Assembly (NCBI GenBank): GCA_965116225.1
Contig: OZ220495.1
Span: 2,261,405 to 2,325,404, forward strand
DNA: 64,000 nucleotides
Source of the DNA: Dehalococcoidia bacterium
GTDB taxonomy: Bacteria > Chloroflexota > Dehalococcoidia > Bin125
Reading direction: 5' to 3'
Shown: positions 9,057 to 38,201 of the stretch, piece by piece
Layout: each line of letters opens with the position of its first letter
Numbering within the stretch: the stretch's first letter is position 1
Notes under the pieces: model-generated
What the model saw: the letters and a program-made list of their open reading frames with translations, nothing else
Told to the model about the DNA's origin: nothing
Database searches by the model: none
Made by a program: the position numbers and the translations under genes

Positions 9057-9241
9057 CGTGCAGTCCGGCGTACCAACCGCTCCCGGTGACGGGGCGAGCT
9101 ACTCCTCGCCGCGGCTGTGTCCATGCCCGTTCATATCCTCGAGCAGGGTCCAATCGTTCGCGTCGGCGGCCCAGTCCAGCAGCGCTTCGAGTTGATCGGC
9201 GAGCGTCGCAACGCGCTTGCGGTCGTAGAGCAACGGATCCA

Positions 9242-10330
9242 TCAGTACCTTAGAGCCGCCCAGCCGCCCAGCACCAGGCTTGCGTCAATGCCGATTGTCT
9301 CATGGAATCCGATCATCCCGATCGCGCTGACAGCAAGGTAGCCCTGTAGCTCTGGAAGGTCCAGGATCGAAAACAGCAGATCGCCTTCGAGGATTCTGAG
9401 GGATAAACGTGATAATCCAGCCAACCGTGCCCAGCTCGATGTCGTGGCCTGAGTCTTCGATTGCCGCTTGCGTTGGCTTGACGAGTGCCGAGTTCAGCGT
9501 AAGCACGGCGGCACCTCGCCTTGAGCCAACCGGTCGGCGATCATCGTCTCGACTTGGTCGAGATTGGATAGCCCGGCCTGGTCGACTCGCAGGCGCTCGA
9601 CCGTTCCGCTGTAGGCGGTCTCCGCATGATCGCAGCGTTTTTCGAGACCCACATGGGCGGCTTCGTAAGTAACGCAGATCAAGGTCCCGGTCAAGCCGGC
9701 GTCAGCGAACGCCCGCCCCGCCATGTCGCCGGTAGCCGGATCGTCGAGACCGACGTGTTTGAGTTGCCATAGTCTGCGCCCTCCGAAGCGCCTGAATTGA
9801 AGGTGGCGATCTGTACGCCCGCCTCTCGAGCCGCGACGATAGTTGGTCCCACCACGTCTGGAGCAGCCAATGTCGTCCCAATCACCGCCGCGCCATCGGC
9901 GACGCACTTGTTGATCAGCTCGGCCTGCGCTGTGGGCGTTGCGCCCGACTCAACCCGCAGGTTCATCCTGAAGTCCGAAGCGGCCTCCTGTGCTGCGATA
10001 TGCGCGAGCCTCCAGAACTGCAAGTCCCCCGGCGTTCCATGATCGATCAGACAGACTAGGTCGCCGTCCAGGAAGAGTCCGGCCCGATGTTCACAGCACC
10101 GAACTATGCAGCCAGTCGCCTGGCTTTGCGTTTGCCGGCACGAACCGGGTTGCCGCCAGCAGCCGCTCGCCCCAGGCACCGCCCGCCTCGCGCTGTTGCA
10201 GCGCGACTTCGACATCGCCGTCGGCTTGGCGCTGCGCCACAATGCGCACTTCGCCGCTACCGATGTGATTCGCCAGCACCACGCTCAGCAGGAGTCCGAT
10301 CCCTACGCCGGACAGCAACATGCCCGCCAT
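9242..10330 (-). pseudogene. Decayed periplasmic sugar-binding protein (PBP1/RbsB-like ABC SBP) broken by several frameshifts
   Basis: Signal-peptide ORF (10091..10330, MAGMLLSGVGIGLLLSVVLA) followed in other frames by SBP-like segments (LIDHGTPGDLQFW...AELINKCVADGAAVIG...VQIATFNSGAS; ...LRVDQAG...; ...ELQGYLAVSAI...). These are split over at least four reading frames, and no permease or ATPase genes lie adjacent. Confidence 0.5.
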
Positions 10331-14582: not shown

Positions 14583-15026
14583 GTGTGGAAGAACGACTGT
14601 CCTCTACCGCTCGCCAAGATACGCGCAATCGCGCAGGAACGGAGGTACAGGGTGACAGAGCACCCATTCGACGATCAGGAACCGGAATCGCCCTTGAACC
14701 AGGTACGCGCAGCTCTAGATCGACTTGCGTCACAGTCGTTGGCGGCTAGTGACGCGCGACGATCTGTGTGCGAGCAATTGCAGGCGGCGATCGATGCCCA
14801 GAACTGGCACCGCGCGCATCGCGCCGCGCGAATGCTCGCCCGCGGTGATGCCCTCAGTCTCGTTCTATGGCTGGGGGCGCAAGAGCATATTGAGCGGCTG
14901 CGAGCGGCAGACGTCGAACGTTGTCCCTCGCATGATCCACTGGATGCTCAAGCGGCGATTCAAGAAGCAGAGCGGCTGCTCTCGCAGTCGCCCGACGACC
15001 GAAACTCGAAGGAGGAACCATCGTGA
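14583..15026 (+). CDS. Hypothetical protein (GTG start chosen; ORF is open from 14304 but would overlap upstream gene)
   Basis: ORF in frame 0. Motif KIRAIAQERRYRVTEHPFDD. The stop overlaps the next start (GTGA), indicating translational coupling. Confidence 0.4.
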   Translation: MWKNDCPLPLAKIRAIAQERRYRVTEHPFDDQEPESPLNQVRAALDRLASQSLAASDARRSVCEQLQAAIDAQNWHRAHRAARMLARGDALSLVLWLGAQEHIERLRAADVERCPSHDPLDAQAAIQEAERLLSQSPDDRNSKEEPS

Positions 15027-15346
15027 AACTGACCGAAGCTGAGCGCATGCTCCCATACGTGCTGTGTGAGCTGAAAATCAGAGGCCCAGAGCTGCGGTTC
15101 AGGCAGCTGGCAAACGCAGTTCGGCCGCGTATGACGCACCTTCTAACGGAGACCGACTTGCGTCCATACGACAGTGGCCAAATTCCTTGGGAAGTCAAGC
15201 TGAGCAGGTTCAAAGATGAGCTGCGCAAGCGCAGGCTGATTGATCCGCGCACTTCCCGGGGCGTGTATCGAATCACGCGCAAGGGATCGCAGGAGGTTGA
15301 AGATTGGCTCGCTGCGCTGACTGCTGCTACGGGACCGGATGCGTAA
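15023..15346 (+). CDS. Small Mrr_N-like winged-helix protein
   Basis: 107 aa, ...RLIDPRTSRGVYRITRKGSQ closely resembles the C-terminal wing of the Mrr_N wHTH domain. Start overlaps the upstream stop. Confidence 0.5.
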   Translation: MKLTEAERMLPYVLCELKIRGPELRFRQLANAVRPRMTHLLTETDLRPYDSGQIPWEVKLSRFKDELRKRRLIDPRTSRGVYRITRKGSQEVEDWLAALTAATGPDA

Positions 15347-15351
15347 CGACA

Positions 15352-15384
15352 CTTGCGGGCACCGCCATTGGCGGTGCCCGCAAG
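15352..15384 (+). terminator. Intrinsic-terminator-like hairpin (15-bp perfect stem cttgcgggcaccgcc / ggcggtgcccgcaag, 3-nt loop)
   Basis: Perfect inverted repeat beginning 6 nt after the TAA stop at 15346. No U-tract, which is common in high-GC genomes. Confidence 0.55.
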
Positions 15385-15938
15385 CTGTGTGAGATCGTTT
15401 GAGCGCTCAGATCGTTGATACTGTTTCACCCCCAGGCCGGAACACCTCTTTGGGCGATGGCCAGTTGGTTAGCGGTCAGAGCGGACGTGACTCGAACCGT
15501 GGCGGACGGCTATCCCTCGCAGATCAGCTGAGCCTGCCCTTCGTCGAACCCTATTCGCTCACCTGTCGCGCAGGGCTGCCACCTCCAGTCTCTCTGCTCC
15601 TGTAGGCGGGTGAGGTGGTTTGCGTTCAGGATGCCGGATTGGATCAGCAGGATTGCGGTATCTGCGTTTTCGACCGACATCGCCGATAACCAGCTCGTGC
15701 TGGCGCTGCTGGCATCGAAGTTGTTGAGCGCCTGCGTACCAACCGCCATTTGTTCTGGAGCCTGCCGCTTCCCCCGTTCCCGGCGGGCGCAGTCTACGCC
15801 CTGTCCGCGGAGTGGCCGGCGTGGGGTAGTCTCACTACCGTCGAACGAACGCAAGCAGGCGCGGGGAAATTCCCCGCGCCTGCTTGCTGCTGCGCTGGCT
15901 GTTGCCAGCGCTTGTCGGTCGACACGGCAGGTGAAGCG

Positions 15939-17243
15939 CTAGACGGCCTCGATGATCGTCGAGATGCCCATGCCAGCGCCGATGCACTGGGTGGCGAGAC
16001 CGTACTGGCTGCCGCTGCGCTTGAGCTCGCGCGCGACGGTGGTGACCAGTCGGGTGCCGGTGGCGCCCAGCGGGTGGCCGATGGCCAGCGAACCGCCGTT
16101 GACGTTCACCTTGTCCATCGAAATGCCCAGCTCCTGCACCGAGGGGATGACCTGCGCGGCGAAGGCCTCGTTGAACTCGACGCGGTCGATCTGCGCGGCG
16201 TCGATGCCGGCGTGCGCCAGCGCTTTGCGTGTTGCAGGTATCGGGCCCAGACCCATAATCTGCGGCTTGACGCCGCCGACGCCAAAGCCCGCGATGCGCG
16301 CCAGCGGTTCAAGGCCGAGCTCGTCCGCCTTGCGCTCGCTCATCAGCAGCGCCGCGGTGAAGCCGTCGTTGGTCGGGCAGCTGTTACCGGCCGTGATGCG
16401 AATTTCGCTCTGCGTGTGCGAAACGGTGCCGCGGACGGTGCGCAGAGCGCTCAACCCCTCGAAGTTCGTGCCTGGGCGGAAGCCCTCATCGACTTCGACA
16501 ACGCGCGTGTCGCCGCGCTCGTCGAGCAGCAAGTTGCCTTCCTCATCGAAGACGGGCATGTCGACCTCGATCGGCACGATCTCGCCCTGGTAGAAGCCGT
16601 TGGCCATCGCCTCGCCGTACTTGCGGTGCGATTCGACCGCGAACTCGTCCAAGGTCTCGCGCGAAATGTCGTACATCTCGGCTACGTTCTGCGCCGTCTG
16701 CAGCATCGAGCAGACCGGTGACGAGTCGAGAATCTCGTCCGGGATCGGCACGCTGAAGTAGTCGTTGTGGTTGGGCGCGAGGTTGCGCTGCGACTCGGTC
16801 ATGCTGTGGCGGTCCTGGTTGAACTCGGTAATCCGGTTCGGTTCCGCGCCGCCGCCGCCGCCAAGCTGGCGACCCATCCGCTCGACGCCGAGCGCGATGC
16901 CGACGTCAATCGCGCCGACCATAATCTCCTGCGCCACGCGATGCATCGTCTCCATCGAGGAACCGCACTGGCGGTTCGAGTCGAACGTGCAGACCGACTC
17001 GGGCAGCCCGGCCAGTCGCACGATGTGGTTGGCGCCGATACCGGCCAGCTCCGCCACGCCGCCGACGCAGCCCATGCCGACATCCTCGATGTCGTGCGGA
17101 GATAGCTGCGGGTAGCGGCCGAGCAGTTCCTGGAGCACTTGGACGGCGATCGTGTCCAGCCGGGTCGCCGTGAACGCGCCGCGCCCGCCGCGCGTGAAGG
17201 CGGAACGTGCGCCGTCGACGATGACGACATTCTGCATTTCCAT
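15939..17243 (-). CDS. Thiolase-family acetyl-CoA C-acyltransferase
   Basis: 434 aa, N-terminal VVIVDGARSAFTRGGRGAF and active-site Cys region NRQCGSSMET typical of thiolases. Confidence 0.8.
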   Translation of the reverse strand: MEMQNVVIVDGARSAFTRGGRGAFTATRLDTIAVQVLQELLGRYPQLSPHDIEDVGMGCVGGVAELAGIGANHIVRLAGLPESVCTFDSNRQCGSSMETMHRVAQEIMVGAIDVGIALGVERMGRQLGGGGGAEPNRITEFNQDRHSMTESQRNLAPNHNDYFSVPIPDEILDSSPVCSMLQTAQNVAEMYDISRETLDEFAVESHRKYGEAMANGFYQGEIVPIEVDMPVFDEEGNLLLDERGDTRVVEVDEGFRPGTNFEGLSALRTVRGTVSHTQSEIRITAGNSCPTNDGFTAALLMSERKADELGLEPLARIAGFGVGGVKPQIMGLGPIPATRKALAHAGIDAAQIDRVEFNEAFAAQVIPSVQELGISMDKVNVNGGSLAIGHPLGATGTRLVTTVARELKRSGSQYGLATQCIGAGMGISTIIEAV

Positions 17244-17382
17244 CGGTCGTTCCTTTCTGGCGGGCCATGCCAGATGGCTCGCCGTCTGTCTGCGTGGTTG
17301 TCACACCACAATGTAACGTCACATAGTCTAACGCTCTGACGCGCCCTAGTACCATCCTCGGCGAGCGCCGCGACTGTTGTCG

Positions 17383-20300
17383 CTAGAGGTCGAGTGTGCC
17401 TGACGCGGCAGGTTGCGATTTGGGCGGTTTCCGCTCTGCGTCGGACGGACTGGGCAGCTCAGCCGCCGTCCACAGTTCCGATTCGAGCACCGCATCCAGC
17501 AGCGCCCGTCCCGTCGGCTCGAGGTCGATGGTGCGCTCGATCACCCAGAGCAATTCCAACAGCTCTTCGCTGAACTCCCATCGCTCTGGCCGAATGTCGT
17601 CGAGCGGCGACGATTTCTTGCCTTTGCGATCCCGCATCCGATAGCCCAGCCATGATCGCACGATCTGTAACCCCGACACCGAGTATTCGTACACCGCTCG
17701 CGGCACTGGTCGGAATTCGCCCTCGCCCACATGCAGCGTCAAGGTCTGCTCGTCGTAGTGGAACGAGTTTGGATATTCCGACTGCGGCACCGCCACCGCG
17801 CAGCGGGCGTCACCCTGCGGAACCGTGCCGTCGTCCTGCGGACCGGCGAACCGCTCTCCGTACGTATGCAGATGGATCAGTTGTCGCCCGTGCTCGGCGA
17901 CGCGCATGAACAACTCCCGATCCTTGCTGATCGGCAAGCGCGGCGGCGGCAACTCGAGCTCGTCCCAGAATCGCTCGACGTAGGATGGTTGGGCGAGGAT
18001 GCCATAAGCGTAGGCGAAGAGGTCTTCCGGCCCCGTGTCGAGTATGTCGAGAATGCCGGCAGTCACATTGGCTTGAGTTCCCGCCGCGTCTCGGTAGAGG
18101 GGGATGACATCCTTGGCACCCCGGCCGCAGAAGTGATCGAGATCCGGAACAGCGCTCGCTGCGATCGCCGCAGGCCCCTTGCCCAGCACTTTTGTCAGTA
18201 GCGAAGTCATATAGACCTGATTTGAGCTATATGCAACCCATAGTGATGGTCCGGGTCGATCAATAAGCCTTGTGTCTGCAATAATGTACTGTCTGTCCCA
18301 TGAGCGTAGCGTGTACTGCACTATATGGGGCATTGGTTCAGGTTTCTTGACATCATATATTGATACGAGCCTGGCTCCCTGTTTATCCAAGGGCATCGGC
18401 TCGTCATCGACCTTACGACCAGTCGATCGACTCACAAATAGCATTTCACGCTGACTGTTCTCTGATTTTGTCAGAGCTCGCCAGCGCGCGCTAAGTATAT
18501 TAGTCGTCTCTCCAATTGGCCAAGTTCTACCGACCTTGACGCCGGACTGTTGCCAGGGGAATACGTCGTTGACCTCCGGCCAGTCGAAGTAAGCGCCTGT
18601 GCCGATCGGGTAGAACGGATCGGTCCAGGCGTCTGAGCAAGGTTGCCAATCGAGATCGGCAAGCGTTCGAATCTCGTTAAGCTGCGCGAGCTTGGCTTCG
18701 GCGCTGCCGCTGAGCTTAACCTTGCTGACGACAGCCGGGCGCTCGGAGTCTGCGTCGCGGTATCGCACGCCGATCGCAATCGCCACGGGAGAGCGGATGG
18801 CGAACACGTTGTCCGTCTTGCGAGCGCCGAGATTGTCGCCCTCCAGATCGATGATCCGCAGTTCGTCGAACGTCTGGCGCATCATCTGCCGCATGCCCGC
18901 AAATGCCGGTCCGCGCAGATATGAGGAGGCGGTAATGAAGGTGACGATACCTCGGTAGTCCGGCGATTCGAACACTTTCCAAAGCGCCCAGCGCCAGAAG
19001 TACACGTATGTGTTGTATAGATTCTTCAACTGGCCGCCTTCGCCCGCTTTGACGACCGGCTCGGTAAAGTCGCGCAGAATTCCAGCCTGTTCAGGCCCGA
19101 TGTCGCCGTGTACGACCCAACCGCCAGGCCCTTCCTTACCCGTTTCGGGTTCGCCCATTTTGCCGCGGTCGTAGGGCGGATTGCCGATGCAGACAGTGAT
19201 GTTGCGAGCGCGTTTCATCTCCTGCGCCGCTTTGCGATCGGCGGTTATAGCCTGTTGCAGCAGCGAAGCGTGAAACTCTTCCTCTGCCGTAGGCGATGCC
19301 AATGTATCGGCCAGATAGACTCGCGCCGACTGCCCGGTCGCTCCAACTTCGCGCAATCGCTGCGTGATCCGGAGTCGCGCGACGGCGTAGGGTCCCACCA
19401 ACAACTCGAACGCTTCCAGGCGCTCGGCCAAGCTGCTCATACGCTCTGCAACCGCGCCGGGTCCATAGCGTTGCGAGACCGTCGTTGCCGCTTGATCGAT
19501 GATGGCGAGCGGGTAGGTGCCGGTCCCCACGGCAGGGTCGAGGATGCGCACCGATGAATCCGCGAAGCCCAGTGGCCTGTCGAACCGGGTGCGAAGCAGT
19601 TCGTCGGCCAACCGCACCTGGCATTCCACTACCTCGATGGGCGTGAAATAGACGCCGCGATCCTTACGCAGGGCCGGATCATAGGCGGCGAGAAAGATCT
19701 CGTAGAAGTACAGCCAATAGTCAGTGGCGAGTTCCGTCTGCGGTTCCGCTATCGCGCCGATCACACGCTCCAACAGCGAAATGGGCATCAGCAGTTCGTC
19801 GCGGACGAGTGGGAGTTCCAGCAGCTGCAGCGCCGAAGCCAGCAGCGCATGTTCGCCTTCCAGTTTGGGAAGCGCCGCGTGGAGATCAAGCGACTCAGCA
19901 CCTTCGAACTGCGCCAGCAGCAGCGCATAGGTCAATGTCTGCGCATATGCGTCAGCGAATTGCGCGTCATCCGCCTCAGGGAAGAGGATGCCGCGCCATT
20001 CCGTCGCAAGTTCGCGCAGCGGTTTATTCCCCCGTCCCAGTGCTGATTGAACCTCGTCCCGCAGGATGCGGGCCAGCGGCGCGATGAATTCCGCGATGCC
20101 CTTCGGATCGCTAGGTGTCTTGGGCTGCCAGTTGACGAAGTCCGCCAATAGCGCCCGTAACTCGCTCAGCGAGTCAGGCCGTAAGGCGTTGGGACCGTCG
20201 CGAATATCCGTAGCGATTCGGACTCGAGCTTTTCGCTCACCCGTCCGATATAATGTCCACTCGGAGCCATCGGTATAGATCAGATTGGGCAACGCCGTAA

Positions 20301-20610
20301 AGCGTTTGAATTGTTCCAGGTTACTCTTCTTAAAACTCTCGGGTCGCGCGCCAATGTGCGGCGCCTTGAGTTCGATGTGACCGGTCAGTAGTCCGTCGAC
20401 GATCACGCCGATGTCGGGGCGACCATTCACATCGTCGTCGCGGACTTCGCTACGCCACGCGACTGTTGCGTTGACAAGCGGGCCAAACCGGCTGAGGAGA
20501 TCACCGACAAGTGGTTTGAGTTGGTCTTCTTCCTGCGCTCCGTGCAGGTTTGAGAATTTCTCCACGCACTCGTTGGCGAACTGCGAGGCGAGCTCTTTGA
20601 AATTTTGCAT
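17383..20610 (-). CDS. Single-polypeptide Type IIL/IIG restriction-modification enzyme (MmeI-like: N-terminal PD-ExK nuclease, gamma-class N6-adenine methyltransferase, C-terminal TRD)
   Basis: N-terminal RPDIGVIVDGLLTGHIELK (PD...ExK). Central DPAVGTGTY (motif I) and CIGNPPYDRG (motif IV, NPPY). About 1075 aa. Start taken at MQNFKE (ATG 20610). Confidence 0.65.
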   Translation of the reverse strand: MQNFKELASQFANECVEKFSNLHGAQEEDQLKPLVGDLLSRFGPLVNATVAWRSEVRDDDVNGRPDIGVIVDGLLTGHIELKAPHIGARPESFKKSNLEQFKRFTALPNLIYTDGSEWTLYRTGERKARVRIATDIRDGPNALRPDSLSELRALLADFVNWQPKTPSDPKGIAEFIAPLARILRDEVQSALGRGNKPLRELATEWRGILFPEADDAQFADAYAQTLTYALLLAQFEGAESLDLHAALPKLEGEHALLASALQLLELPLVRDELLMPISLLERVIGAIAEPQTELATDYWLYFYEIFLAAYDPALRKDRGVYFTPIEVVECQVRLADELLRTRFDRPLGFADSSVRILDPAVGTGTYPLAIIDQAATTVSQRYGPGAVAERMSSLAERLEAFELLVGPYAVARLRITQRLREVGATGQSARVYLADTLASPTAEEEFHASLLQQAITADRKAAQEMKRARNITVCIGNPPYDRGKMGEPETGKEGPGGWVVHGDIGPEQAGILRDFTEPVVKAGEGGQLKNLYNTYVYFWRWALWKVFESPDYRGIVTFITASSYLRGPAFAGMRQMMRQTFDELRIIDLEGDNLGARKTDNVFAIRSPVAIAIGVRYRDADSERPAVVSKVKLSGSAEAKLAQLNEIRTLADLDWQPCSDAWTDPFYPIGTGAYFDWPEVNDVFPWQQSGVKVGRTWPIGETTNILSARWRALTKSENSQREMLFVSRSTGRKVDDEPMPLDKQGARLVSIYDVKKPEPMPHIVQYTLRSWDRQYIIADTRLIDRPGPSLWVAYSSNQVYMTSLLTKVLGKGPAAIAASAVPDLDHFCGRGAKDVIPLYRDAAGTQANVTAGILDILDTGPEDLFAYAYGILAQPSYVERFWDELELPPPRLPISKDRELFMRVAEHGRQLIHLHTYGERFAGPQDDGTVPQGDARCAVAVPQSEYPNSFHYDEQTLTLHVGEGEFRPVPRAVYEYSVSGLQIVRSWLGYRMRDRKGKKSSPLDDIRPERWEFSEELLELLWVIERTIDLEPTGRALLDAVLESELWTAAELPSPSDAERKPPKSQPAASGTLDL

Positions 20611-20707
20611 TGGTAAGAGAAGGGACGCGCCGACTGGTATTGCAAACTGAGCCGGACTCCGCACGGAGCCCGGCTCAGCTTATGGCGCCTACCGATTTGT
20701 CGGAGGG

Positions 20708-22781: not shown

Positions 22782-24779
22782 GTGCCTGTGGCATTGAGTA
22801 GACGCTCGAGGAACTCGCGGGCGTGCGGACACGCGGTCGATCGGGCGGCGCAGTCGCGCCCGTTCGACGAGCAACGGCCGCTCGGTATCGACCTGCCCGT
22901 TCGCACCAAGCGGCTGATTATCGTCGGCGCGATGTTGAGCATGTTCATGTCGGCGCTCGAACAGAGCGTGGTCAGCCCGGCGATGCCGCAGATCGTCTCC
23001 GACCTGGGCGGCCTCGATCTGTACCCCTGGCTCGTCCAGGCGTTCATCATGGCGCAGGTCGTCACGATCCCCATCGCCGGCACGGTCAGCGACGCGTTCG
23101 GGCGTAAACCGGTACTGCTGGCTGGATTGAGCGTGTTCCTGATCGGTTCTGCGCTGTGCGGCTTCGCGCCCGGCATCTACGAGCTGATCGCCTTCCGTGT
23201 CGTGCAGGGCGTGGGCGGCGCGATCCTGGTGACGGCCACGTTCTCGGTCGTCGGCGACCTCTACGCGCCCGCCGAGCGGGGACGGTTCATCGGCCTGTTC
23301 GGCGGGGTCTTTGCGCTCAGCAGCCTGATCGGCGCGCCGATCGGCGGCGTCTTGACCGAGGCGCTCAACTGGCGCTGGGTGTTCTGGATCATGCTCTTCC
23401 TGGGGCCGTTCGTGCTGGCGGTGATCGCGCTGAAGATGCCTTGGCTGCGCCCGCCGAAGCGCGCCTTCCGGATCGACGCGGCGGGCGTGCTGATGCTCTC
23501 GATCATGCTGATCCCGGCCATGATCGCGCTCAGTCTCGCGTCGCGCTGGGGTTGGCTCGCGCCGCAGACGCTGGCGCTGTTCGCCGTCTCCGCCGCCGCG
23601 CTGCTGCTCTTTATTCGTGTCGAGCGTCGCGCCGAGCAGCCCATCGTCCCGCTGCAACTGTTCAGGATCCAGACCATCGCCACCGCGGCGGTAGTCAATT
23701 TCTTCATCGGCGTTGGCATGATGGGCGTCTTCGTCTACATGCAGTTCTTCCTGCAGGTCGGTATCGGCGCCGACGCAGCGACTGCCGGTCTGATCATGGG
23801 ACCGATGATCCTCGTCTCGGTCGCCGGGTCGGTCATCTCGGGGCAGATCATGTCGCGCAGCGGACGCTACAAGTATCTGGCGGTGACCGGTTCGTTGATG
23901 ATGTTCGCCTCGATGTTGCTGCTCTCGACCATGACGCGCGAGACCACCATCCCCGGCGTGCTGGGCCGGATGTTCCTGTTCGGCGCCGGGATGGGCCTGA
24001 TGATGCCGGTGATGTCGATTGCCTCGCAGAACGCCGCGCCGCAGCGTTATCTGGGCATCGTCTCGGCATTCAGCCAGTTCTTTCAGCAGGTAGGTGGCGT
24101 CATTGGCATCGGCGTGGTCGGAGCGCTCTTCAACGCGCGGCTCGCCGATGGGCTGATGCAGCGGCTCGCGTCCGATCTGGTCGAGATCATTCAGCCGGAA
24201 AAGCTGGTCGATCCGCTCTTTCGGGAGTCATTGGTGCAAGATCTCGGCTCCAACGTCTGGGCAGTGGCTGAACCCGAAGTGCAGACCGCCGTGGCGACGG
24301 CGATCACCGACAATTTCCTGCTGGCCGCGGCCATCGTCCTGATCTCGGTCCTTGCGATCCTGCGGATGCGCGAGCTGCCTCTGCGCAGCGCAAATTCGCC
24401 GTCTGCTCCGACGGTGAGCACCGAGCGCCCCGATAGATCGCAGGACGATGATCCTGCTCCCATCGCGCCGCCGATTGATGCGGCGGGCGATAGTGGTTCG
24501 ACCGTGCTAGTGCTTCGGGACCTGCACGGTCTACAGCTGCGCGGGCAGGTTGCGGCGGAGACCGTAGTGGGCGCTGGCTCCTCATCCCTACCGGCCGAAT
24601 GCCAGGCCGTCGGTGCCCCCAGTTTGCGCCGAGTAGTGTTTGCCAGCGCCGTAATCGGCGCCGGGGTTGGTTTGGCGTTGGCGTTGGTCGGCGAAGCAAC
24701 CCCTCCGGCTAGCGCGCACCGGTGGCCTCTGCGCGCGTCTAGCCGCCGCATTGACCCGCGACCACGACGATCAGGGTAA
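22782..24779 (+). CDS. MFS transporter, DHA2-like (14-TMS drug:H+ antiporter type) with long low-complexity C-terminal tail
   Basis: MFS signatures (GTVSDAFGRKPVLLAGL...FRVVQGVGGA), many TM helices. About 150 aa of Pro/Ala/Ser-rich C-terminal extension. Start uncertain. Confidence 0.75.
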   Translation: MPVALSRRSRNSRACGHAVDRAAQSRPFDEQRPLGIDLPVRTKRLIIVGAMLSMFMSALEQSVVSPAMPQIVSDLGGLDLYPWLVQAFIMAQVVTIPIAGTVSDAFGRKPVLLAGLSVFLIGSALCGFAPGIYELIAFRVVQGVGGAILVTATFSVVGDLYAPAERGRFIGLFGGVFALSSLIGAPIGGVLTEALNWRWVFWIMLFLGPFVLAVIALKMPWLRPPKRAFRIDAAGVLMLSIMLIPAMIALSLASRWGWLAPQTLALFAVSAAALLLFIRVERRAEQPIVPLQLFRIQTIATAAVVNFFIGVGMMGVFVYMQFFLQVGIGADAATAGLIMGPMILVSVAGSVISGQIMSRSGRYKYLAVTGSLMMFASMLLLSTMTRETTIPGVLGRMFLFGAGMGLMMPVMSIASQNAAPQRYLGIVSAFSQFFQQVGGVIGIGVVGALFNARLADGLMQRLASDLVEIIQPEKLVDPLFRESLVQDLGSNVWAVAEPEVQTAVATAITDNFLLAAAIVLISVLAILRMRELPLRSANSPSAPTVSTERPDRSQDDDPAPIAPPIDAAGDSGSTVLVLRDLHGLQLRGQVAAETVVGAGSSSLPAECQAVGAPSLRRVVFASAVIGAGVGLALALVGEATPPASAHRWPLRASSRRIDPRPRRSG

Positions 24780-25254
24780 TTACGATCAACGCGGAGGTGA
24801 GTACCCCCACCGCAAATCCACTGTCGCCCTCGCTAGGCGCTCCGGCGGTCTCGCGTCGTCGCGCGCGTTCGAATCGGTCTCGGTAGATGCCGCGCACGGC
24901 TCTCGATGTGCGCGTTCGACGGGTTTCTACGCTAAAGGCGGCTTGCGGAATCGGCGATTCGGGAATGGCGCCGTCGCGCGGCAGCAATCGCCAGTAGCGC
25001 AGGCGAAACTCTTCGTCGGTCTGGATTCCCTTGCGTAAGTTGCAGGCGGTGCAGAGCAACTGCAGGTTGGCGCGCTCGTTGTCGCCGTTGCGACTCACGG
25101 GCCACTTGTGGTCGATCTCGAGAGAACGACTGCTCATTCGACGGCCGCAGTATCGACAGCGTCCCTGTTGTTCGATGAACAGGGCGTGCCGCACCTGCGC
25201 CGGGAAGATGGTTCGCCCCTGAGTGGGAATCCCGCGATCGTCCTCGACCGGCAT
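24739..25254 (-). CDS. HNH endonuclease-domain protein with C-terminal transmembrane anchor
   Basis: CRYCGRRMSSRSLEIDHKWPVSRNGDNERANLQLLCTACNLRKG gives a complete HNH motif (C-x2-C...H-x...N...C-x2-C). C-terminus FAVGVLTSALIVITLIVVVAG is hydrophobic. 3' end overlaps the MFS 3' end by 41 nt. Confidence 0.55.
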   Translation of the reverse strand: MPVEDDRGIPTQGRTIFPAQVRHALFIEQQGRCRYCGRRMSSRSLEIDHKWPVSRNGDNERANLQLLCTACNLRKGIQTDEEFRLRYWRLLPRDGAIPESPIPQAAFSVETRRTRTSRAVRGIYRDRFERARRRETAGAPSEGDSGFAVGVLTSALIVITLIVVVAGQCGG

Positions 25255-27589: not shown

Positions 27590-30211
27590 TTGGACGCTTG
27601 CATGGCCGGACCGTTGGACGGACTCGTCGCACTGGACCTGACCAGCGATGTCGCCGGTCCCTACGCAACGAAGCTGCTGGCCGATTATGGCGCGCGCGTG
27701 ATCAAGGCGGAGCCGAGGGGAGGCGATCCGTCGCGGCGCGCGGGCCCCTTTCCCAATCAGGTCGAAGACATCGAGGCTTCGGGACTCTTCCTGCATCTGA
27801 ATACCAATAAACAGTCGATCGTCCTCGATCCGCATACCGATGACGGCGCCGCGACGGTGCGTCGGCTGGCGCGCGTCGTGGACGTGGTCGTTGAAGACTT
27901 GCGCCCCGGCGACGCTGAGACCGCCGGTTGGGGCTGGGACACGCTGCATGCGATCAACCCCAGGCTGGTGCTGTGCTCGATCACCCCGTTCGGACAAACG
28001 GGTCCGTATCGTCACTACCGCGGTTCCGAGCTCGCCATGCAGGCGATCGGCGGGCCGCTCCACGCGACCGGCGCGGCGGATCGCGAGCCGGTCAAGCTGG
28101 CTGGACATTACGCCGGCTACCATGCGGGCGCGACGGCGGCGCTTGCGATCCTATTGGCGCTCAAGCGAATCGACGCGGATGCGGGCGCCGGCGATTGGGT
28201 CGATATCTCGATCTACCGCTGTCAGGCGGGCTGCCGCGATCGGCGCACGATTCAACTCGTGTCGGCGGAGTACAGCGGGGTCGCCCCTGGTCGAGCGCAG
28301 CCGACCCGCCGCCTGGTGGGCTTCGGGATGTACCCGTGCGCCGACGGCTTCGTGAACATCGTCGGCTCCGGTACCCGTATGCCGAGGCTGATGCGCTGGA
28401 TCGGCAGGGAAGATCTGCTGGAGGACGAGGATTACCTCGCTGGGCCGCGGCCGGGCTCCGGATTCGGCGCGCGCGTCGATGCGGCGATCGAGTACCACCT
28501 CAGGGGGTTGAGCAAGGTGGACGCCGTGGCATCGGCGCAGGCGGCCGGATTGTTGGCGGGCGCGGTGATGACGGTGTCTGACGTGCTCAACGACCCACAG
28601 CTGACCGCCCGCGACTGGTGGCACGAAATCACCCATTGGCACGGCGAGCCATTGCCGTACCCGGGTTTCCCGTTTCGGATGAGCGAGTCGCCGCCGTCGA
28701 GACCCAAACGTTCGCCGAGGCTCGGCGAACACTCCCGCGTAGTGCTCGACCTGACACCTCCCGATCCGTTGGAAGACATGCGACATCCCGTGCCCGAGGG
28801 TCCCTCCAGCTCGCTGCCGCTTCCGCTGGAAGGCGTCAGGGTCGCTGCGATCACCGTGGTCTGGGCCGGCCCACACGTCACCCAGCTGTTGGCTGAGTGG
28901 GGGGCGGATGTGATCAACGTGGAGCCGATTAATCGGGTCCAGCCCTACACCCGGGGCGCCGAGAACGTGCAAACTCGGGAAGCGATGCTGCGCGGTGCCG
29001 CCATCGGCGTCCAGCCGCAATACCCGGACGCCGAACCGGGCGATGAACCCTGGAACCGTTTCGCCTCATTCAACTCGCACGCGCGCAACAAACGCTCGAT
29101 GACCTGCGACATCATGTCTCCGCAAGGCAAAGAGGTGTTTCTCAAACTGATCGAGCAGTGCGATGTCCTGGTCGAGAACAACGTGCCGACCACGATTGAC
29201 AAGGCGGGGATCGACTGGGAGACGCTGCAGCAGATCAATCCGCGACTGATCATGCTGCGCATGCCGGCGTTTGGGCTCGAAGGCCCATACTCGTCCTATC
29301 GCGCCTTCGGCTTGCACGTCGAGGCGATGGTCGGGCATACGCACCTGCGCGGCTATCCTGATCGCGGCCCGGAGGGCATCGGCGAGACGTTGGCGAGTGA
29401 TGGACTCTCCGGTGTCCAGGGTGCGTTGGCGGTGATAATGGCGCTGCGGCATCGTGAACGCAGCGGCTTCGGTCAGATGATCGAGATGCCGCTCAATGAG
29501 GGCTTCATCCCGACCCTGGCGGAGTATCTCTTCCAGTACGCCATGAATGGTGTCGATCCGCCGCCACAGGCGAACACGCACGCGCATCGCGCGCCGTACG
29601 GCGTTTATCCCTGTCGCGGCGACGACCAGTGGATTGCCATTGATGTCTCATCCGACGCTGAGTTCGTCGCGCTCTGCGCCGCGCTGGCGGCCGGCCCCGG
29701 CGACGCGACCGTGCAGTCGGAGCTGGCTCACGCGCCGTTGGACACGCGGTTCGCGCAGGCCGCGGTCCGCAAGGCCAATGCCGCCGCGCTGGACCAGCTG
29801 ATCACCAGCGAAACCCGCATCTGGCATAAGGAAGACCTGTTCCACAAACTGCAGCAGGCGGGCGTCTGCGCCGCCCCGCTCAATGATCCGTTCGACGCGC
29901 TCTCGGACCGACATCTGCGCGAGGTGGGTTTCTTCGAGCAGATGACCGTGGATGGCGTCGGCACGCATCGGTATCCTGGTCTGACCTTCACGATGAGCCG
30001 CACGCCGAACCGACTGCGCACGCCGCCGCCCAAGCTGGGCGAGCACAATCGCGAGATCTACTGCGACCTGTTGGGCTACAGCGCCGAAGAACTGGCCCAA
30101 TTGGAAGAGATCGGGCTCGTCGGTACGGCATATCCCGACGAACTGCTGCCGCTGCACGCAAGACGATCCGTTCAGGCAACCGAACAGTCGCGACAACGAT
30201 CGGAGGACTGA
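27590..30211 (+). CDS. Tandem-fused family III CoA-transferase (two CaiB/BaiF-type domains in one 873-aa polypeptide)
   Basis: First domain LVALDLTSDVAGPYATKLLADYGARVIKAE...; second domain from about aa 415 VRVAAITVVWAGPHVTQLLAEWGADVINVE.... No stop codon between them. Confidence 0.75.
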   Translation: MDACMAGPLDGLVALDLTSDVAGPYATKLLADYGARVIKAEPRGGDPSRRAGPFPNQVEDIEASGLFLHLNTNKQSIVLDPHTDDGAATVRRLARVVDVVVEDLRPGDAETAGWGWDTLHAINPRLVLCSITPFGQTGPYRHYRGSELAMQAIGGPLHATGAADREPVKLAGHYAGYHAGATAALAILLALKRIDADAGAGDWVDISIYRCQAGCRDRRTIQLVSAEYSGVAPGRAQPTRRLVGFGMYPCADGFVNIVGSGTRMPRLMRWIGREDLLEDEDYLAGPRPGSGFGARVDAAIEYHLRGLSKVDAVASAQAAGLLAGAVMTVSDVLNDPQLTARDWWHEITHWHGEPLPYPGFPFRMSESPPSRPKRSPRLGEHSRVVLDLTPPDPLEDMRHPVPEGPSSSLPLPLEGVRVAAITVVWAGPHVTQLLAEWGADVINVEPINRVQPYTRGAENVQTREAMLRGAAIGVQPQYPDAEPGDEPWNRFASFNSHARNKRSMTCDIMSPQGKEVFLKLIEQCDVLVENNVPTTIDKAGIDWETLQQINPRLIMLRMPAFGLEGPYSSYRAFGLHVEAMVGHTHLRGYPDRGPEGIGETLASDGLSGVQGALAVIMALRHRERSGFGQMIEMPLNEGFIPTLAEYLFQYAMNGVDPPPQANTHAHRAPYGVYPCRGDDQWIAIDVSSDAEFVALCAALAAGPGDATVQSELAHAPLDTRFAQAAVRKANAAALDQLITSETRIWHKEDLFHKLQQAGVCAAPLNDPFDALSDRHLREVGFFEQMTVDGVGTHRYPGLTFTMSRTPNRLRTPPPKLGEHNREIYCDLLGYSAEELAQLEEIGLVGTAYPDELLPLHARRSVQATEQSRQRSED

Positions 30212-30835: not shown

Positions 30836-31645
30836 ATGCTTTCCGACGCTGACCGCGCGTTCTTCGACCAGAACGGCTATCTCATCGTCCGCCAGCTCAT
30901 TCCTCGCCAGATGGTGGCGGAGGTCGTCGACGGATCTGGGATTTCCTGGAGTTTGATCGCGACGATCCCTTCGACTGGTGTCGCGAGCCGCATCGCGTCA
31001 ACGGGATAGTGGAGATGTACCACGATCAGGCGCTCTGGGACGTGCGCCAGCATCCGCGCATCTACGAGCTGTTCCGCGACCTGTTCGGGCGCGACGATCT
31101 GTGGGTGTTCATCGATCGCGCCAACCTGAAGCTGCCGCCGAGGCGAGGCGCACTCCGAGTACGAGCACCCCATCCTGGTGCACTTGGGACATGGATGTGC
31201 GTCAGACGCCGACGCCATTCCTCGTCCAGTGCGTGCTCTATCTGGTCGATACCAGGCAGGGCGAGGGCGGGTTCCACAGTGCGTGCCGGGTGCGCATCGT
31301 CGGGCCAGCGCGATTGCCGCCGGCCTCTCGGACGACGATCTCCGCCACCAGCAGTTGCACGAACGATTCCCTGAGCAGATCGGGCCGCCGATCGAGATCG
31401 AGGCGGACGCCGGGGACTTCATCGTCTGGCACTCGGCGCTGCCGCACGGAAACGGTCGCAATCTCTCCGACAAGCCTCACCTGGCGCAGTATGCTCGACT
31501 GTTCCCGGCTGAACCATCGAACGAATCGCTACGCGAACAGCGGATCGCCTCCTGGTACGAGTCATCGCATCCGGCATTCCAGAATCCGAGAGCGTTCCCT
31601 GGCGATCCGCGAGGCAGGGATGCGATGACGCCGCCAGCTGTGTGA
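30836..31645 (+). pseudogene. Phytanoyl-CoA dioxygenase (PhyH)-family Fe(II)/2OG oxygenase gene disrupted by three -1 frame changes
   Basis: PhyH-like segments in successive frames: MLSDADRAFFDQNGYLIVRQL (frame 2), IWDFLEFDRDDPFDW...LWVFIDRANLKLPP (frame 1), WCTWDMDVRQTPTPFLVQCVLYLVDTRQGEGGFH (frame 0), CVPGAHRR...AGDFIVWHSALPHGNGRNLSDKPHLA (frame 2). Confidence 0.55.
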
Positions 31646-32693: not shown

Positions 32694-33782
32694 TTACTCC
32701 CTGTCTGGCATCGGAAACGCCCGAACGGCGGTGATCGCGGCGAGATGTTCGCGTAGCAGCGCCCAACGCGCTCCGCCATCAGTGGAGCCGTAGAGTTCGC
32801 CGCCGCTGGAGCCGAAGTACAGCCCCAGCGGGTCGCACGCATCCTGTCCCAGCGCGTGTCGATAGACAGTGTGGTAGAAACCGGACTGCGGTAGCCCGTC
32901 CGACAATCGATCCCAGGTCTGGCCGGCGTCGCGGGTGCGGTACACCGCGAGTGATCCGTCATAGGGTATCCGCGCCTGATCGGAGTCGTGCGGCACGAAG
33001 TAACAGACGTCGGGGTCGGTCGGATCGATGGCGGTGGGGAACCCGAACATGCCTGGCAGCTCTTCGCCGATTCGCTGCCAGGTCTGGCCGTCGTCGTCGG
33101 AACGGTACTGACCGAAGTGGTTTTGTTGCCAGAGTCGGCCGCGTTGACGCGGATGCGCGAACAGCGAGTGCACGCAGGGCGCGCCGAGCTGGAACTCGGC
33201 CGGAATGTGCTCGCTGAAGATGCCCTCATTGCGAACATTCCAGCTCTCGCCGCCGTCGTAGCTGACCATGATGCCGGTCGCTGAGCCGGCAACGACCAGG
33301 CGGTCAGGGTCGTCGGGATCGACGGAGATGCGGTGGATCACCAGGCCCGCTGCGCCCGGCTCCCAGTGTTCGGCAGCCGGATGCTGCGAGAGCGACTCGA
33401 TTTCGCGCCAGGACTCACCGTCGTCTTCAGAAACGAACAACGCGCCTGGCATGATCCCGGCGTACAACTGTCCCGGCTTCCCGCCGGGCTCGATCATCCA
33501 GATCGCCTCGACGGAACGCGCGCCATCGCTGAAGGCGGGCGTGGCGGCTTCGGTCCAGGTGGCGCCCCAGTCGGTGGTGTAGTGCAGACGCGGACCCCAC
33601 TGCCAATGGCTGGCAGCGCACCAGACTTTGCCGCTGCGCGGGTCGTACACGGCGTAATCGACCATCCAGCCGGGGCGCTGTAGATCAGACCACTGCCACT
33701 GTGCGCGACTGTCGCTGCTGCGACCCAACAACAGACCCTTGCGCGTGCTGACCAACAGACTGGCGTCACGTACTTCGTTCAT
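32694..33782 (-). CDS. BNR/Asp-box repeat (sialidase-like beta-propeller) protein
   Basis: Repeated S-x-D-x-G-x-T/S-W motifs (TTDWGATW, SEDDGESW, SYDGGESW, SDDDGQTW, TRDAGQTW, STDGGARW). ATG at 33782 overlaps the upstream stop (ATGA). Confidence 0.7.
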   Translation of the reverse strand: MNEVRDASLLVSTRKGLLLGRSSDSRAQWQWSDLQRPGWMVDYAVYDPRSGKVWCAASHWQWGPRLHYTTDWGATWTEAATPAFSDGARSVEAIWMIEPGGKPGQLYAGIMPGALFVSEDDGESWREIESLSQHPAAEHWEPGAAGLVIHRISVDPDDPDRLVVAGSATGIMVSYDGGESWNVRNEGIFSEHIPAEFQLGAPCVHSLFAHPRQRGRLWQQNHFGQYRSDDDGQTWQRIGEELPGMFGFPTAIDPTDPDVCYFVPHDSDQARIPYDGSLAVYRTRDAGQTWDRLSDGLPQSGFYHTVYRHALGQDACDPLGLYFGSSGGELYGSTDGGARWALLREHLAAITAVRAFPMPDRE

Positions 33783-34099
33783 TGCGGTTTCCAGTTCTTC
33801 AGAGAATTGTTCGGATGACACGGCGCACCTCCCGATACCGCGGGTAGGATGTATAGCCTGTCGCCATCATCGAGCGCGTCAGATAACTGCTCGCGATCCA
33901 TGATCAGCGCGTCGTTGATATAGATATTGACGTGTCTGCGCACGCGACGGGCGTCATCGAGCACGAACCGCTGTAGCTCGGGATAGGAGACGATCAGCGC
34001 CTCAATCGCTTCGCGCGCGGATGCGCCCTCGACCGCGACGGCGGGCGGCACATCGACGTGCACGCGAAGCCCGTGAGCCATCCGGATCTCGACGCTCAT
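33779..34099 (-). CDS. MoaD/ThiS-family ubiquitin-like sulfur-carrier protein with 15-aa extension after the GG motif
   Basis: ...RHVNIYINDALIMDREQLSDALDDGDRLYILPAVSGG matches the MoaD/CysO C-terminal pattern. The ORF continues APCHPNNSLKNWKPQ before the stop. Confidence 0.65.
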   Translation of the reverse strand: MSVEIRMAHGLRVHVDVPPAVAVEGASAREAIEALIVSYPELQRFVLDDARRVRRHVNIYINDALIMDREQLSDALDDGDRLYILPAVSGGAPCHPNNSLKNWKPQ

Positions 34100-34248
34100 G
34101 CACGCATCTCCATTCCTCCAATATTATAGATCAAGTGTTCGGTATTTATGTTGGCACGCGGCGGACCGGCTCAGACGACCGACTTGCCCTCAGATCCGCC
34201 TACAGCCGTATCGTATCGATGTCGGAGAGGCTAGAGAGGACGTGCGCG

Positions 34249-36293: not shown

Positions 36294-36545
36294 ATGTCCG
36301 AGCGGCGGATCGCGATCGAAATCGTCTACTGCGCCGACTGCGGCTACTGGCCCCGCGCGGCCTGGATGCTTGGCGAGCTGATGACCGATATCCAGCATCT
36401 GGTCTCGAACGTCACACTGATCCCCGACACGAGGGGATTGTTCGAGTGGTCGATCGACGGCGAACTGGTCTTCAGCAAGGCCGCCATGGGTCGCTTCCCT
36501 GACATGGATGAGCTGCGCGAGTTGATCTACGCTCGGCTCGACTGA
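36294..36545 (+). CDS. Rdx/SelW/SelT-family thioredoxin-fold protein (Cys form, CxxC)
   Basis: IAIEIVYCADCGYWPRAAWMLGEL...GLFEWSIDGELVFSK matches the Rdx family with a CADC redox motif. Confidence 0.7.
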   Translation: MSERRIAIEIVYCADCGYWPRAAWMLGELMTDIQHLVSNVTLIPDTRGLFEWSIDGELVFSKAAMGRFPDMDELRELIYARLD

Positions 36546-36558
36546 GCCACAGACCGAG

Positions 36559-37146
36559 TTGTTCGGCGACAGGAGTGGAACGGTGGTCGAGACGGTTACA
36601 GTACTGAGCCCACTCGCGCATGTTGCCGTGCGAGAGGCGACGCCGGCGTCGCGACCTACATCCCTCGACGGGCTTCGCCCCGGCATCCTCGAAAATCGCA
36701 AAGCGAACGCTCGACTACTGATGGAGACCATGGTCGAACGACTCGGCGAACGCTTCGATCTCGGGCCACTGGTCGTCGGCAGCAAACCGGTTGGCGGGCC
36801 GCCGACCGATGCGACCATCGACGCGTTGCGCAACGGAGCCGATTTCCTGCTCATCGGCAGCTGCGATTGAGGTAGCTGCACGACGTGGAGTGTCCACGCC
36901 GCTGTCCTGTTTGAAGAGCTGGGTATCCCGACAGTCACGGTCGGCACATCGGCCTTTACCGATTTGCTACAGCTGGAAGCCGAACAGCGCGGTCTGCCGC
37001 AACTCGACCGCCTGATCGTGCCGCATCCGCTCGGCGGCCTGCGTCCCGATCGCGTACGAGCGCGGGTGGACGACACCGTGTTGGATCGGCTCGAGTCCGC
37101 CCTGCTCGGCCAGGCCGGTCGAGCTGGACGGGCGGTTGCCTCGTGA
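36559..37146 (+). CDS. UGSC-family selenoprotein; in-frame TGA at 36868-36870 read as selenocysteine (...LLIGSCD-U-GSC-TTW...)
   Basis: Six-frame ORFs 36559..36870 and the downstream frame-continuous ORF ending 37146 are joined by a single TGA. The residues after the TGA are G-S-C, giving the eponymous U-G-S-C motif. Hairpin cgtgga-gtg-tccacg lies 14 nt downstream of the UGA. The stop at 37146 overlaps the next start (GTGA). Confidence 0.6.
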
Positions 37147-38201
37147 CGACGCTTCAGGGCCGCGAAGCCGATCGGTTCACATTGCCCTCTGACCCGTTCG
37201 ACTTTTCCCAGGAGTGCATCCGCCGCGGCTGGTCGGACGGCTTGCCGCTGATTCCACCGACACCTGAGCGCGTCGCGACGATGCTTGCAGCCTCAAACCG
37301 CGACCCGCTGGAGGTGTTGGGCGTGCTCGCACCGCGACAGGGCGAGGCAACGGTACAGGCAGTCGCGATCAACGCCGTCATGGCTGGTTGTCGCCCGCCG
37401 CAATTCCCGATCGTGCTCGCCGCGGTCGAGGCGCTTGCCCAGCCGCTATTCAATCTCGATGGCATCAACGCCACGACGCATCCCTGCGCGGTGTTCGTGC
37501 TGGGATCTGGACCGATCGCGCGCGCGGCAGGCATCCACGGCGGCTCGGGCTGCTTCGGACCAACATTTCCCGCCAACGCCACCATTGGCCGCGCTGTCCG
37601 ACTGTCCCAGCTCAACATTGCCGGCGCGACGCCCGGTCGCGGCGACCGCGCTACCCAGGGCACGCCGGCCAAATTCACCTTCTGCGCCAGCGAGCGCGAG
37701 GACGCCTCGCCGTGGCCGCCGTTTCAGACCACTCGCGGACTCAACGTCGAGGACAGTTGCGTCACCACTTGGGCCTGCGAAGGTCCGCACAACATCCAGG
37801 ATCATGGCAGCAACACCGCTGCCGGCATCCTGCAGACCGTCGCCGGCGCGATGGGTCAGGCGGGCTCGAACAATATTTTGGGCAAGGGCGAGCCGCTGCT
37901 TGCGTTCGGGCCCGAGCACGCCGAGACTGTCGCCTCCGCAGGCTGGACCCGCGAGTCCGTCCAGGAGTATCTTTGGGAGCACGCGCGCTATCCCGCCAGC
38001 AAGCTCAGCGACGAATTCCTCGAATCCGTCAACATCCGCATGGCGGGCGGCATCCTACCGACGCACGGTACCGACGAATCACTGCCGATCTCCGACAGGC
38101 CGGAAGAAATCCACATCATCGTCGCTGGCGGCCCCGGCAAACACTCGTCATGGATGCCGACGTTCGGCGGTACGACGCGCCCCGTCACCATTCGGTTGTA
38201 G
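37143..38201 (+). CDS. Conserved hypothetical protein (352 aa), translationally coupled to the UGSC selenoprotein gene
   Basis: GTG 37143 overlaps the upstream TGA. Gly-rich soluble protein with no recognisable motif by eye. Confidence 0.5.
   Translation: MTTLQGREADRFTLPSDPFDFSQECIRRGWSDGLPLIPPTPERVATMLAASNRDPLEVLGVLAPRQGEATVQAVAINAVMAGCRPPQFPIVLAAVEALAQPLFNLDGINATTHPCAVFVLGSGPIARAAGIHGGSGCFGPTFPANATIGRAVRLSQLNIAGATPGRGDRATQGTPAKFTFCASEREDASPWPPFQTTRGLNVEDSCVTTWACEGPHNIQDHGSNTAAGILQTVAGAMGQAGSNNILGKGEPLLAFGPEHAETVASAGWTRESVQEYLWEHARYPASKLSDEFLESVNIRMAGGILPTHGTDESLPISDRPEEIHIIVAGGPGKHSSWMPTFGGTTRPVTIRL

Follow-up and report, generated by a model that had tools for sequence, protein, structure and literature searches.

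The closest described relatives of the gene pair reported here are sulfur carrier proteins with a beta-grasp fold. CysO of Mycobacterium tuberculosis ends at Gly-Gly and has CysM, Mec+ and MoeZ as partners; QbsE and HcyS are precursor sulfur carriers that require a cut after Gly-Gly. Carriers may also be fused to the protein with which they work, as in MoaX of M. tuberculosis, where cleavage after the MoaD part is required for activity (PMC4326299), and in the MoaD-MoaE fusion of Deinococcus, which is cut by the JAMM protease DRJAMM (PMC8832034). C-terminally extended or fused sulfur carriers are already known; the literature searched mentions no conserved pairing with an Asp-box propeller. 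No paper in it linked a MoaD/ThiS protein to a BNR propeller, and the 2006 and 2007 surveys of beta-grasp proteins do not describe the pair. Here such a partnership is described from a 64,000-nucleotide stretch of the genome of a Dehalococcoidia bacterium (contig OZ220495.1; hereafter the window), in which a gene for a ThiS/MoaD-type protein with 15 residues beyond its conserved Gly-Gly overlaps a propeller gene. The beta-grasp protein and the propeller form a conserved module, and it is by this context that the beta-grasp subfamily is defined.

The features of the pair, all on the minus strand, are listed below with the evidence for each; loci and protein clusters of relatives are designated by L and P numbers, respectively.

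33779..34099 (stop codon included), minus strand: ThiS/MoaD (CysO/SAMP1-like) beta-grasp gene, 106 aa (translation, PF02597, PDB profile matches)
33827..33832, minus strand: codons GGA GGT of Gly90-Gly91, at the end of the family profile; GGAGG can be read as a Shine-Dalgarno sequence (Pfam and alignment)
33782..33826, minus strand: 15-codon tail APCHPNNSLKNWKPQ, residues 92-106, a hypervariable linker and coupling segment (conservation, junction DNA, fused linker)
33779..33782, minus strand: ATGA overlap of the beta-grasp stop and the propeller start (sequence; relatives L001, L002, L164 and L084)
33819..33821, minus strand: possible alternative propeller start GTG, 5 nt past GGAGG (alignment with the GTG start of L164)
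32694..33782, minus strand: seven-bladed Asp-box (BNR) beta-propeller gene, 362 aa, PDB 3B7F family (PF02012, PF15902, 3B7F_A match, Foldseek)

The open reading frame (ORF) at 33779..34099 is a genuine gene, whose product is a beta-grasp protein of the CysO/SAMP1-like type. Pfam ThiS (PF02597, gathering score 22.5 bits) matched residues 24-91 with 41 bits (E 2.9e-10), the end of the profile falling on the second glycine. The best NCBIfam matches, SAMP1 (NF041918) and moaD_arch (TIGR01687), aligned end to end up to Gly-Gly and both stopped at residue 91; their scores of 54.2 and 35.8 bits lay under the curated cut-offs of 60 (equivalog) and 49.5, respectively. Unlike SAMP1 and archaeal-type MoaD, moreover, the window protein belongs to a bacterium and has no conjugation or molybdenum cofactor context. 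The best solved-structure matches of the family profile (alignment A1; E 1e-12 to 3e-14) were 4N6E_B, a ThiS/MoaD family protein (3.4e-14), and 3DWG_C, the CysO (cfp10A) of M. tuberculosis (1.1e-12). AlphaFold models of the fused homologues P0073 and P0094 showed the strand-strand-helix-strand-strand order of the beta-grasp fold in residues 1-87, over which the block-mean predicted local distance difference test (pLDDT) was 91-98.

The translation ends ...YILPAVSGG-APCHPNNSLKNWKPQ, and the C-terminal stretch as a whole reads ...DGDRLYILPAVSGG-APCHPNNSLKNWKPQ. The preliminary description had claimed a MoaD/ThiS/CysO-type protein with its Gly-Gly covered by a 15-residue tail, and this was borne out, since PF02597 ends at residue 91 of a protein of 106 aa. 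The fold and the ...SGG motif, which is C-terminal in CysO-type carriers, are common to CysO and the window protein; unlike CysO, the latter has a tail-covered Gly-Gly and an Asp-box propeller as its conserved partner, with no linked CysM or Mec+. Functional sulfur carriers have a terminal Gly-Gly, whereas 15 residues lie beyond Gly90-Gly91 here. In this respect the protein resembles the precursor and fused carriers (MoaX, MoaD-MoaE, QbsE and HcyS), which have extra residues or a whole protein past the conserved Gly-Gly, and as in MoaX and MoaD-MoaE the carrier is found fused to its partner in relatives. It differs from MoaX and MoaD-MoaE in that the partner is a propeller and not MoaE, that no JAMM gene is nearby and that cleavage is putative.

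The propeller ORF matched PF02012 and PF15902, whilst BNR_2 scored 17.5, under its cut-off of 31.4; SxDxGxxW-type motifs recur along the family alignment. Its clear homologue of solved structure is PDB 3B7F (Reut_B4987 of Ralstonia eutropha JMP134, titled 'putative glycosyl hydrolase with BNR repeats'), which matched at E 3.4e-54 over residues 7-355. Foldseek superimposed 3B7F on the AlphaFold model of the fused homologue P0073 (74 % identical) with a template modelling (TM) score of 0.90, a root mean square deviation of 2.0 and 36 % identity. The 3B7F protein, which comes from structural genomics, is a seven-bladed Asp-box propeller whose function is listed as 'Not known' (PMC2716378). More distant structural neighbours of the P0073 model were the glycoside hydrolase family 74 (GH74) xyloglucanases (16 % identity), DAIP, Ycf48 and sortilin. 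The Asp-box propellers of Ycf48, DAIP and sortilin Vps10 belong to the same fold class and are related only distantly (TM 0.3-0.6, 12-19 % identity), a likeness that is no evidence of common function; that to GH74 glycoside hydrolases is likewise a distant likeness of fold, and the name 'exo-alpha-sialidase' carried by propeller relatives is an automatic annotation. The propeller search returned more than 2,500 relatives. Outside the Asp-boxes, the invariant or nearly invariant residues of the family alignment include D47, H205, Q220, H222, R227, R271 and R308.

The distribution of the pair was surveyed in one genome per species. At least 595 matches were obtained, from Chloroflexota, Acidobacteriota, Actinomycetota, Alphaproteobacteria (including the cultured Aminobacter, Ancylobacter and Inquilinus), Gemmatimonadota and others, and 80 more loci came from metagenomes scanned with the beta-grasp profile. 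Partner states were counted by hidden Markov model searches of all loci, 129 of which held a full-length propeller:

Beta-grasp gene adjacent to the propeller gene, same strand, either order: 104 of 129 loci
Adjacent, carrier ending exactly at Gly-Gly and a stop codon, beta-grasp gene downstream of the propeller: 45 loci
Adjacent, carrier ending exactly at Gly-Gly and a stop codon, beta-grasp gene upstream of the propeller: 33 loci
Adjacent, tail of 1-4 aa: 11 loci
Adjacent, tail of at least 5 aa: 14 loci
Adjacent, beta-grasp protein fused to the propeller: 1 locus
Propeller without adjacent beta-grasp gene: 19 of 129 loci
Contig cut: 6 of 129 loci

The pairing had initially been called unusual. 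It is undescribed in the literature searched, but it is also recurrent, with same-strand adjacency in 104 of the 129 loci. Pairwise distances of beta-grasp proteins and propellers co-varied (r = 0.82 for 96 pairs; the highest value after permutation was 0.08), a correlation to which vertical descent in common would also contribute. All-against-all clustering of neighbouring ORFs from 82 genome and close-relative loci and the window revealed no third conserved gene, and no E1, JAMM, MoaE, ThiG or CysM gene travelled with the module. The neighbours that did cluster were lineage-specific, namely a MarR-like gene in Alphaproteobacteria, a 239-aa protein in Acidobacteriota and a small protein of about 134 aa in Actinomycetes (labels read from sequence).

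Two variants of the arrangement were observed. In Acidobacteriota-type loci (L013, L019, L034, L054, L056, L064 and L078) the conserved 239-aa protein, which has two repeated halves and is YciI-like by eye only, adjoins the propeller; in several of them it sits between the propeller and the beta-grasp gene, which are then 880-960 nt apart. In L037, from a metagenome-assembled genome (MAG) of Gaiellaceae, the beta-grasp frame (about 9166-10138) runs 273 aa past Gly-Gly into an apparent alpha/beta-hydrolase, which may be another kind of Gly-Gly fusion or a frameshift.

Conservation of the beta-grasp protein ended abruptly at Gly-Gly. A similarity search identified 62 further protein clusters, nearly all of 97-125 aa, lengths that imply tails of about 6-16 aa, and four of 92-93 aa. 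In the resulting 63-sequence alignment each position of ILPAVSGG, and hence each of Gly90 and Gly91, was 98 % conserved, whereas most tail columns reached 16-33 %; the first residue past Gly-Gly was A, S or T in 95 % of sequences. A neighbour-joining tree of propellers, from which clades were assigned, grouped the window propeller with L001, L002, L084, L085, L083, L164/165, L003 (a Dehalococcoidia MAG, OZ251529.1) and the fused P0094-96 and P0101. None of these ends at Gly-Gly with a stop codon; the proteins of the clade carry tails of 2, 11, 12, 15, 16 or 34 aa or are fused to the propeller. The sister group mixes upstream genes that stop at Gly-Gly (L150 and L151) with fusions (P0156, P0164 and P0174). 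At least seven protein clusters are single polypeptides with an N-terminal ThiS domain and a propeller (P0094, P0095, P0096, P0101, P0156, P0164 and P0174), in all of which Gly-Gly is kept and followed by a linker of 4-14 aa and then by the first propeller strand, LLVGTxKG. Because it is hypervariable, ranges from 2 to 34 aa and is replaced by an in-frame linker in fused relatives, the tail is a linker and translational-coupling segment and not a conserved propeptide, and as such a variable linker it is confined to one Dehalococcoidia-type clade.

A local indel or assembly error that deleted the stop codon after Gly-Gly, or an ORF that is no gene, would also produce an apparent tail. A PhyH gene adjacent to the pair is indeed broken over several frames in the window, and all that separates the fused relative P0073 (locus L083) from the split form is the phase at the same ATGA, which could itself be an indel error. 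The tail, however, is common to about 60 independent protein clusters and is present with the same frame relationship in L001, L002, L003, L084 and L085, which come from different samples; the independent long contigs L001 and L002 also share the gene order glyoxalase (opposite strand), beta-grasp, propeller and EamA. An artefact is scarcely tenable as an explanation, and the loss of a stop codon by local error was rejected on the evidence of these clusters and loci. P0073/L083 was discounted as evidence of fusion, its phase difference lying on a long-read contig of 25x. Orthologues that end at Gly-Gly with a stop had been suggested beforehand as the sign of such an artefact; 78 loci of more distant relatives have them, yet the whole window clade is tailed or fused, so that this sign does not apply. 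The proposed comparison of orthologues for tails and for the same neighbour thus gave a clear result on both points: tails or fusions throughout the clade, and an adjacent propeller in 104 of 129 loci. That Gly-Gly is blocked need not point to an annotation error; it can be a stable condition of a whole clade.

The layout of the junction follows from its DNA. The sequence reads CAATGAAC, in which TGA (33779-33781) and ATG (33780-33782) form a true 4-nt ATGA overlap; the coupling to a BNR propeller that had been noted from the sequence is thereby upheld, with PF02012 and PF15902 encoded downstream. A 4-nt overlap of stop and start was also called in L001, L002 and L164 and seen in L084. The genes of L001, L002 and L084 have no upstream GTG option and begin at ATGA, and the propeller of P0064 (89 % identity) has 361 aa, against 362 aa in the window, so ATG 33782 is the better-supported start. 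A start further downstream had been considered as a reason to doubt the coupling; the evidence supports ATG 33782, and the alternative GTG at 33819-33821 lies upstream of it, not downstream. In L164 the beta-grasp stop overlaps a GTG start (GTGA) and the tail is merely 'SR'. The window retains this GTG, but its beta-grasp frame runs 13 codons more to the next ATGA. Where relatives stop at Gly-Gly (L111 and L150), the Gly-Gly codons GGAGG sit 5-8 nt before the propeller ATG. From the junction DNA of the window and its relatives, the tail-coding DNA holds the translation-initiation region of the propeller, and the two genes are coupled in translation. Where the beta-grasp gene lies upstream of the propeller gene (window 33827-33832; L111, L150 and L164), a single GGAGG both encodes Gly-Gly and provides the Shine-Dalgarno sequence of the propeller.

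Fused and split forms differ only in reading phase at the junction, and the propeller frame is open across the entire tail region in the window, L001 and L002. The open frame would suit a fused product made by programmed -1 frameshifting within the tail. No obvious slippery heptamer was seen in the tail by eye, however, and open frames are common at the G+C content of the window (63 %). An extension past Gly-Gly also resembles ubiquitin-like precursors, and a role in ubiquitin-like conjugation, which had been raised for the tail, or in anti-phage defence might be considered; it found no support, there being no E1, E2, E3 or JAB neighbour and no match to a PADLOC defence model for either the beta-grasp protein or the propeller. 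Frameshifting, conjugation and defence are, taken together, very improbable explanations.

Candidate processing and activation genes were sought around the pair. ThiF/MoeB, JAB/MPN, MoaE, ThiG and PALP (CysM) domains were absent by Pfam from about 45 of the 64 candidate ORFs of the window, the rest being read by eye, and none of these genes was found within 5-10 kb on either side of the module in four relatives. The absence of a nearby MoaE, ThiG, CysM, E1 or JAMM gene, as reported at the outset, was therefore confirmed for the scanned window ORFs and the flanks of relatives. Neither the linked JAMM/MPN+ gene of precursor-type carriers (scanned window ORFs and relatives' flanks) nor the E1 or acceptor gene that stands alongside sulfur carriers (the same ORFs, relatives and the neighbours of the 82 loci) was present, whilst the residues beyond a conserved Gly-Gly that mark precursor-type carriers were, in the form of the 15-aa tail.

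The reading that we tentatively favour, as nearly but not quite an even chance, is that the protein is a precursor from which a peptidase encoded elsewhere exposes Gly-Gly, after which an E1 activates the carrier and the carrier delivers to the propeller. The beta-grasp protein would be made with Gly-Gly covered by the tail or by a fused propeller, and the peptidase would free it in the way known from MoaX and from MoaD-MoaE fusions. Activation would fall to a housekeeping E1 of the MoeB/MoeZ type, and the activated C-terminus might be presented to the conserved His/His/Gln/Arg face of the propeller. A precursor is suggested because Gly-Gly is almost invariant though never terminal in the clade, because conservation collapses directly after it and because most other lineages stop there. 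In AlphaFold models of two natural fusions the pLDDT was 94-95 and fell below 50 only at Gly-Gly and the linker, so the site is predicted to be exposed and flexible.

Several observations weigh against this sequence of events. In no lineage does the module come with a linked peptidase or E1, which leaves processing and activation as pure inference. AlphaFold gave no confident docking of the domains in the two fusions (predicted TM score 0.77-0.81). The 19 of 129 propellers without an adjacent beta-grasp gene conserve the same residues (D47, H205, Q220, H222, R227, R271 and R308) equally well, and no partner-specific propeller residues were found, the conserved site being identical with and without a partner; the propeller thus has no strict need of its partner, at least in cis. 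Finally, the tails and fusions have persisted for long, which fits a Gly-Gly that is never set free just as well.

The last point leads to the main alternative, which is nearly as likely and in which the beta-grasp protein would stay bound to the propeller for good, as a non-covalent subunit (or as a covalent domain when fused), with a role in assembly, regulation or substrate recognition. Gly-Gly would never be exposed or activated in the clade; the tail would be a linker remnant, and Gly-Gly would be retained as a flexible hinge. Such a subunit would accommodate the repeated switching between split and fused forms within a single clade, the absence of a linked E1, JAMM or acceptor from every lineage and a tail that has survived deep divergence (propeller identity falls to about 55 %); related Asp-box propellers (Ycf48, DAIP and sortilin) have in addition been solved with bound peptides, according to their PDB titles. 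A hinge, on the other hand, needs no invariant ILPAVSGG with an abrupt loss of conservation after it, and 78 of the 104 partner-bearing loci stop at Gly-Gly, the hallmark of carriers that use a terminal carboxylate. The lack of confident docking between the domains counts against a permanent subunit as well.

A more self-sufficient arrangement, in which the pair is an undescribed system of its own, is unlikely. The propeller would then be the dedicated partner of a Gly-Gly carrier, either as a new kind of acceptor enzyme, which would use the activated C-terminus in sulfur transfer, or as the peptidase that frees Gly-Gly, and the tailed and fused forms of Dehalococcoidia would represent the precursor state. 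The specific proposal that the propeller itself acts on the Gly-Gly junction, cleaving the tail or linker of its partner or accepting the thiocarboxylate of the carrier in a self-contained new system, is distinctly improbable. It draws on the module travelling alone as two genes, on the invariance of His205, His222, Gln220 and Arg227/271/308, and on the position of Gly-Gly just 4-5 residues before the first propeller strand LLVGTxKG in fusions. The fold, however, has no catalytic precedent among the PDB matches, 3B7F being without an assigned function, and the same residues are conserved in partnerless propellers. A feature of some propellers without a detected beta-grasp partner (P0178 and P0180; locus L071) is a long C-terminal tail rich in Lys, Arg and Ala (…KARPKKAVARKTKSRK…).

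Beyond the pair, the beta-grasp gene is followed on its 5' side by a glyoxalase-family gene of opposite orientation, whose start is placed near 34246 because the glyoxalase has 134 aa in L001. The interval between the two genes is as follows:

34100..34245, no strand: putative divergent intergenic region, a likely promoter region, between the beta-grasp gene and the plus-strand glyoxalase-family gene (glyoxalase length in L001)

The PhyH (phytanoyl-CoA dioxygenase family) gene at 30836-31645 (plus strand) is scattered over the three forward frames, the main one of which is interrupted by two stop codons. In L001, L002 and L164 the gene is intact, with 283 aa, and the window copy is either a decaying pseudogene or the product of local assembly indel errors. 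On the other side, 36294-38201 (plus strand) encodes an 83-aa ORF with CxxC (its syntenic counterpart in relatives belongs to PF10262, Rdx), a member of the UGSC family and a conserved protein of 352 aa without a Pfam match. This block adjoins genes for an LLM-type oxidoreductase, RidA and the glyoxalase, and is syntenic in all close relatives; its gene content and synteny suggest a thiol or redox theme.

Further away, 15023-20664 and 24739-25254 contain genes for a Type ISP restriction-modification enzyme of 1093 aa, for a small protein weakly similar to Mrr_N and for an HNH endonuclease. The stretch with the HNH gene is unlike that of L001 and L002, whose acyl-CoA dehydrogenase gene is missing in the window, and may be an inserted defence or mobile segment. 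A plus-strand gene at 27590-30211 encodes an 873-aa protein made up of two tandem family-III CoA-transferase units, and a few unrelated lineages (L037 and L081) have CoA-transferases doubled in a similar way close to the module.

Neither the pair nor a function for the propeller of solved structure (3B7F) was found in the literature searched, and yet the two genes are found together in about 600 or more of the species searched, in several phyla, and have been fused repeatedly. Ubiquitin signalling has its prokaryotic roots in beta-grasp proteins of the sulfur-carrier and ubiquitin-like kind, and so far every newly recognised conserved partner of such a protein has brought to light a new chemistry of sulfur transfer or conjugation.

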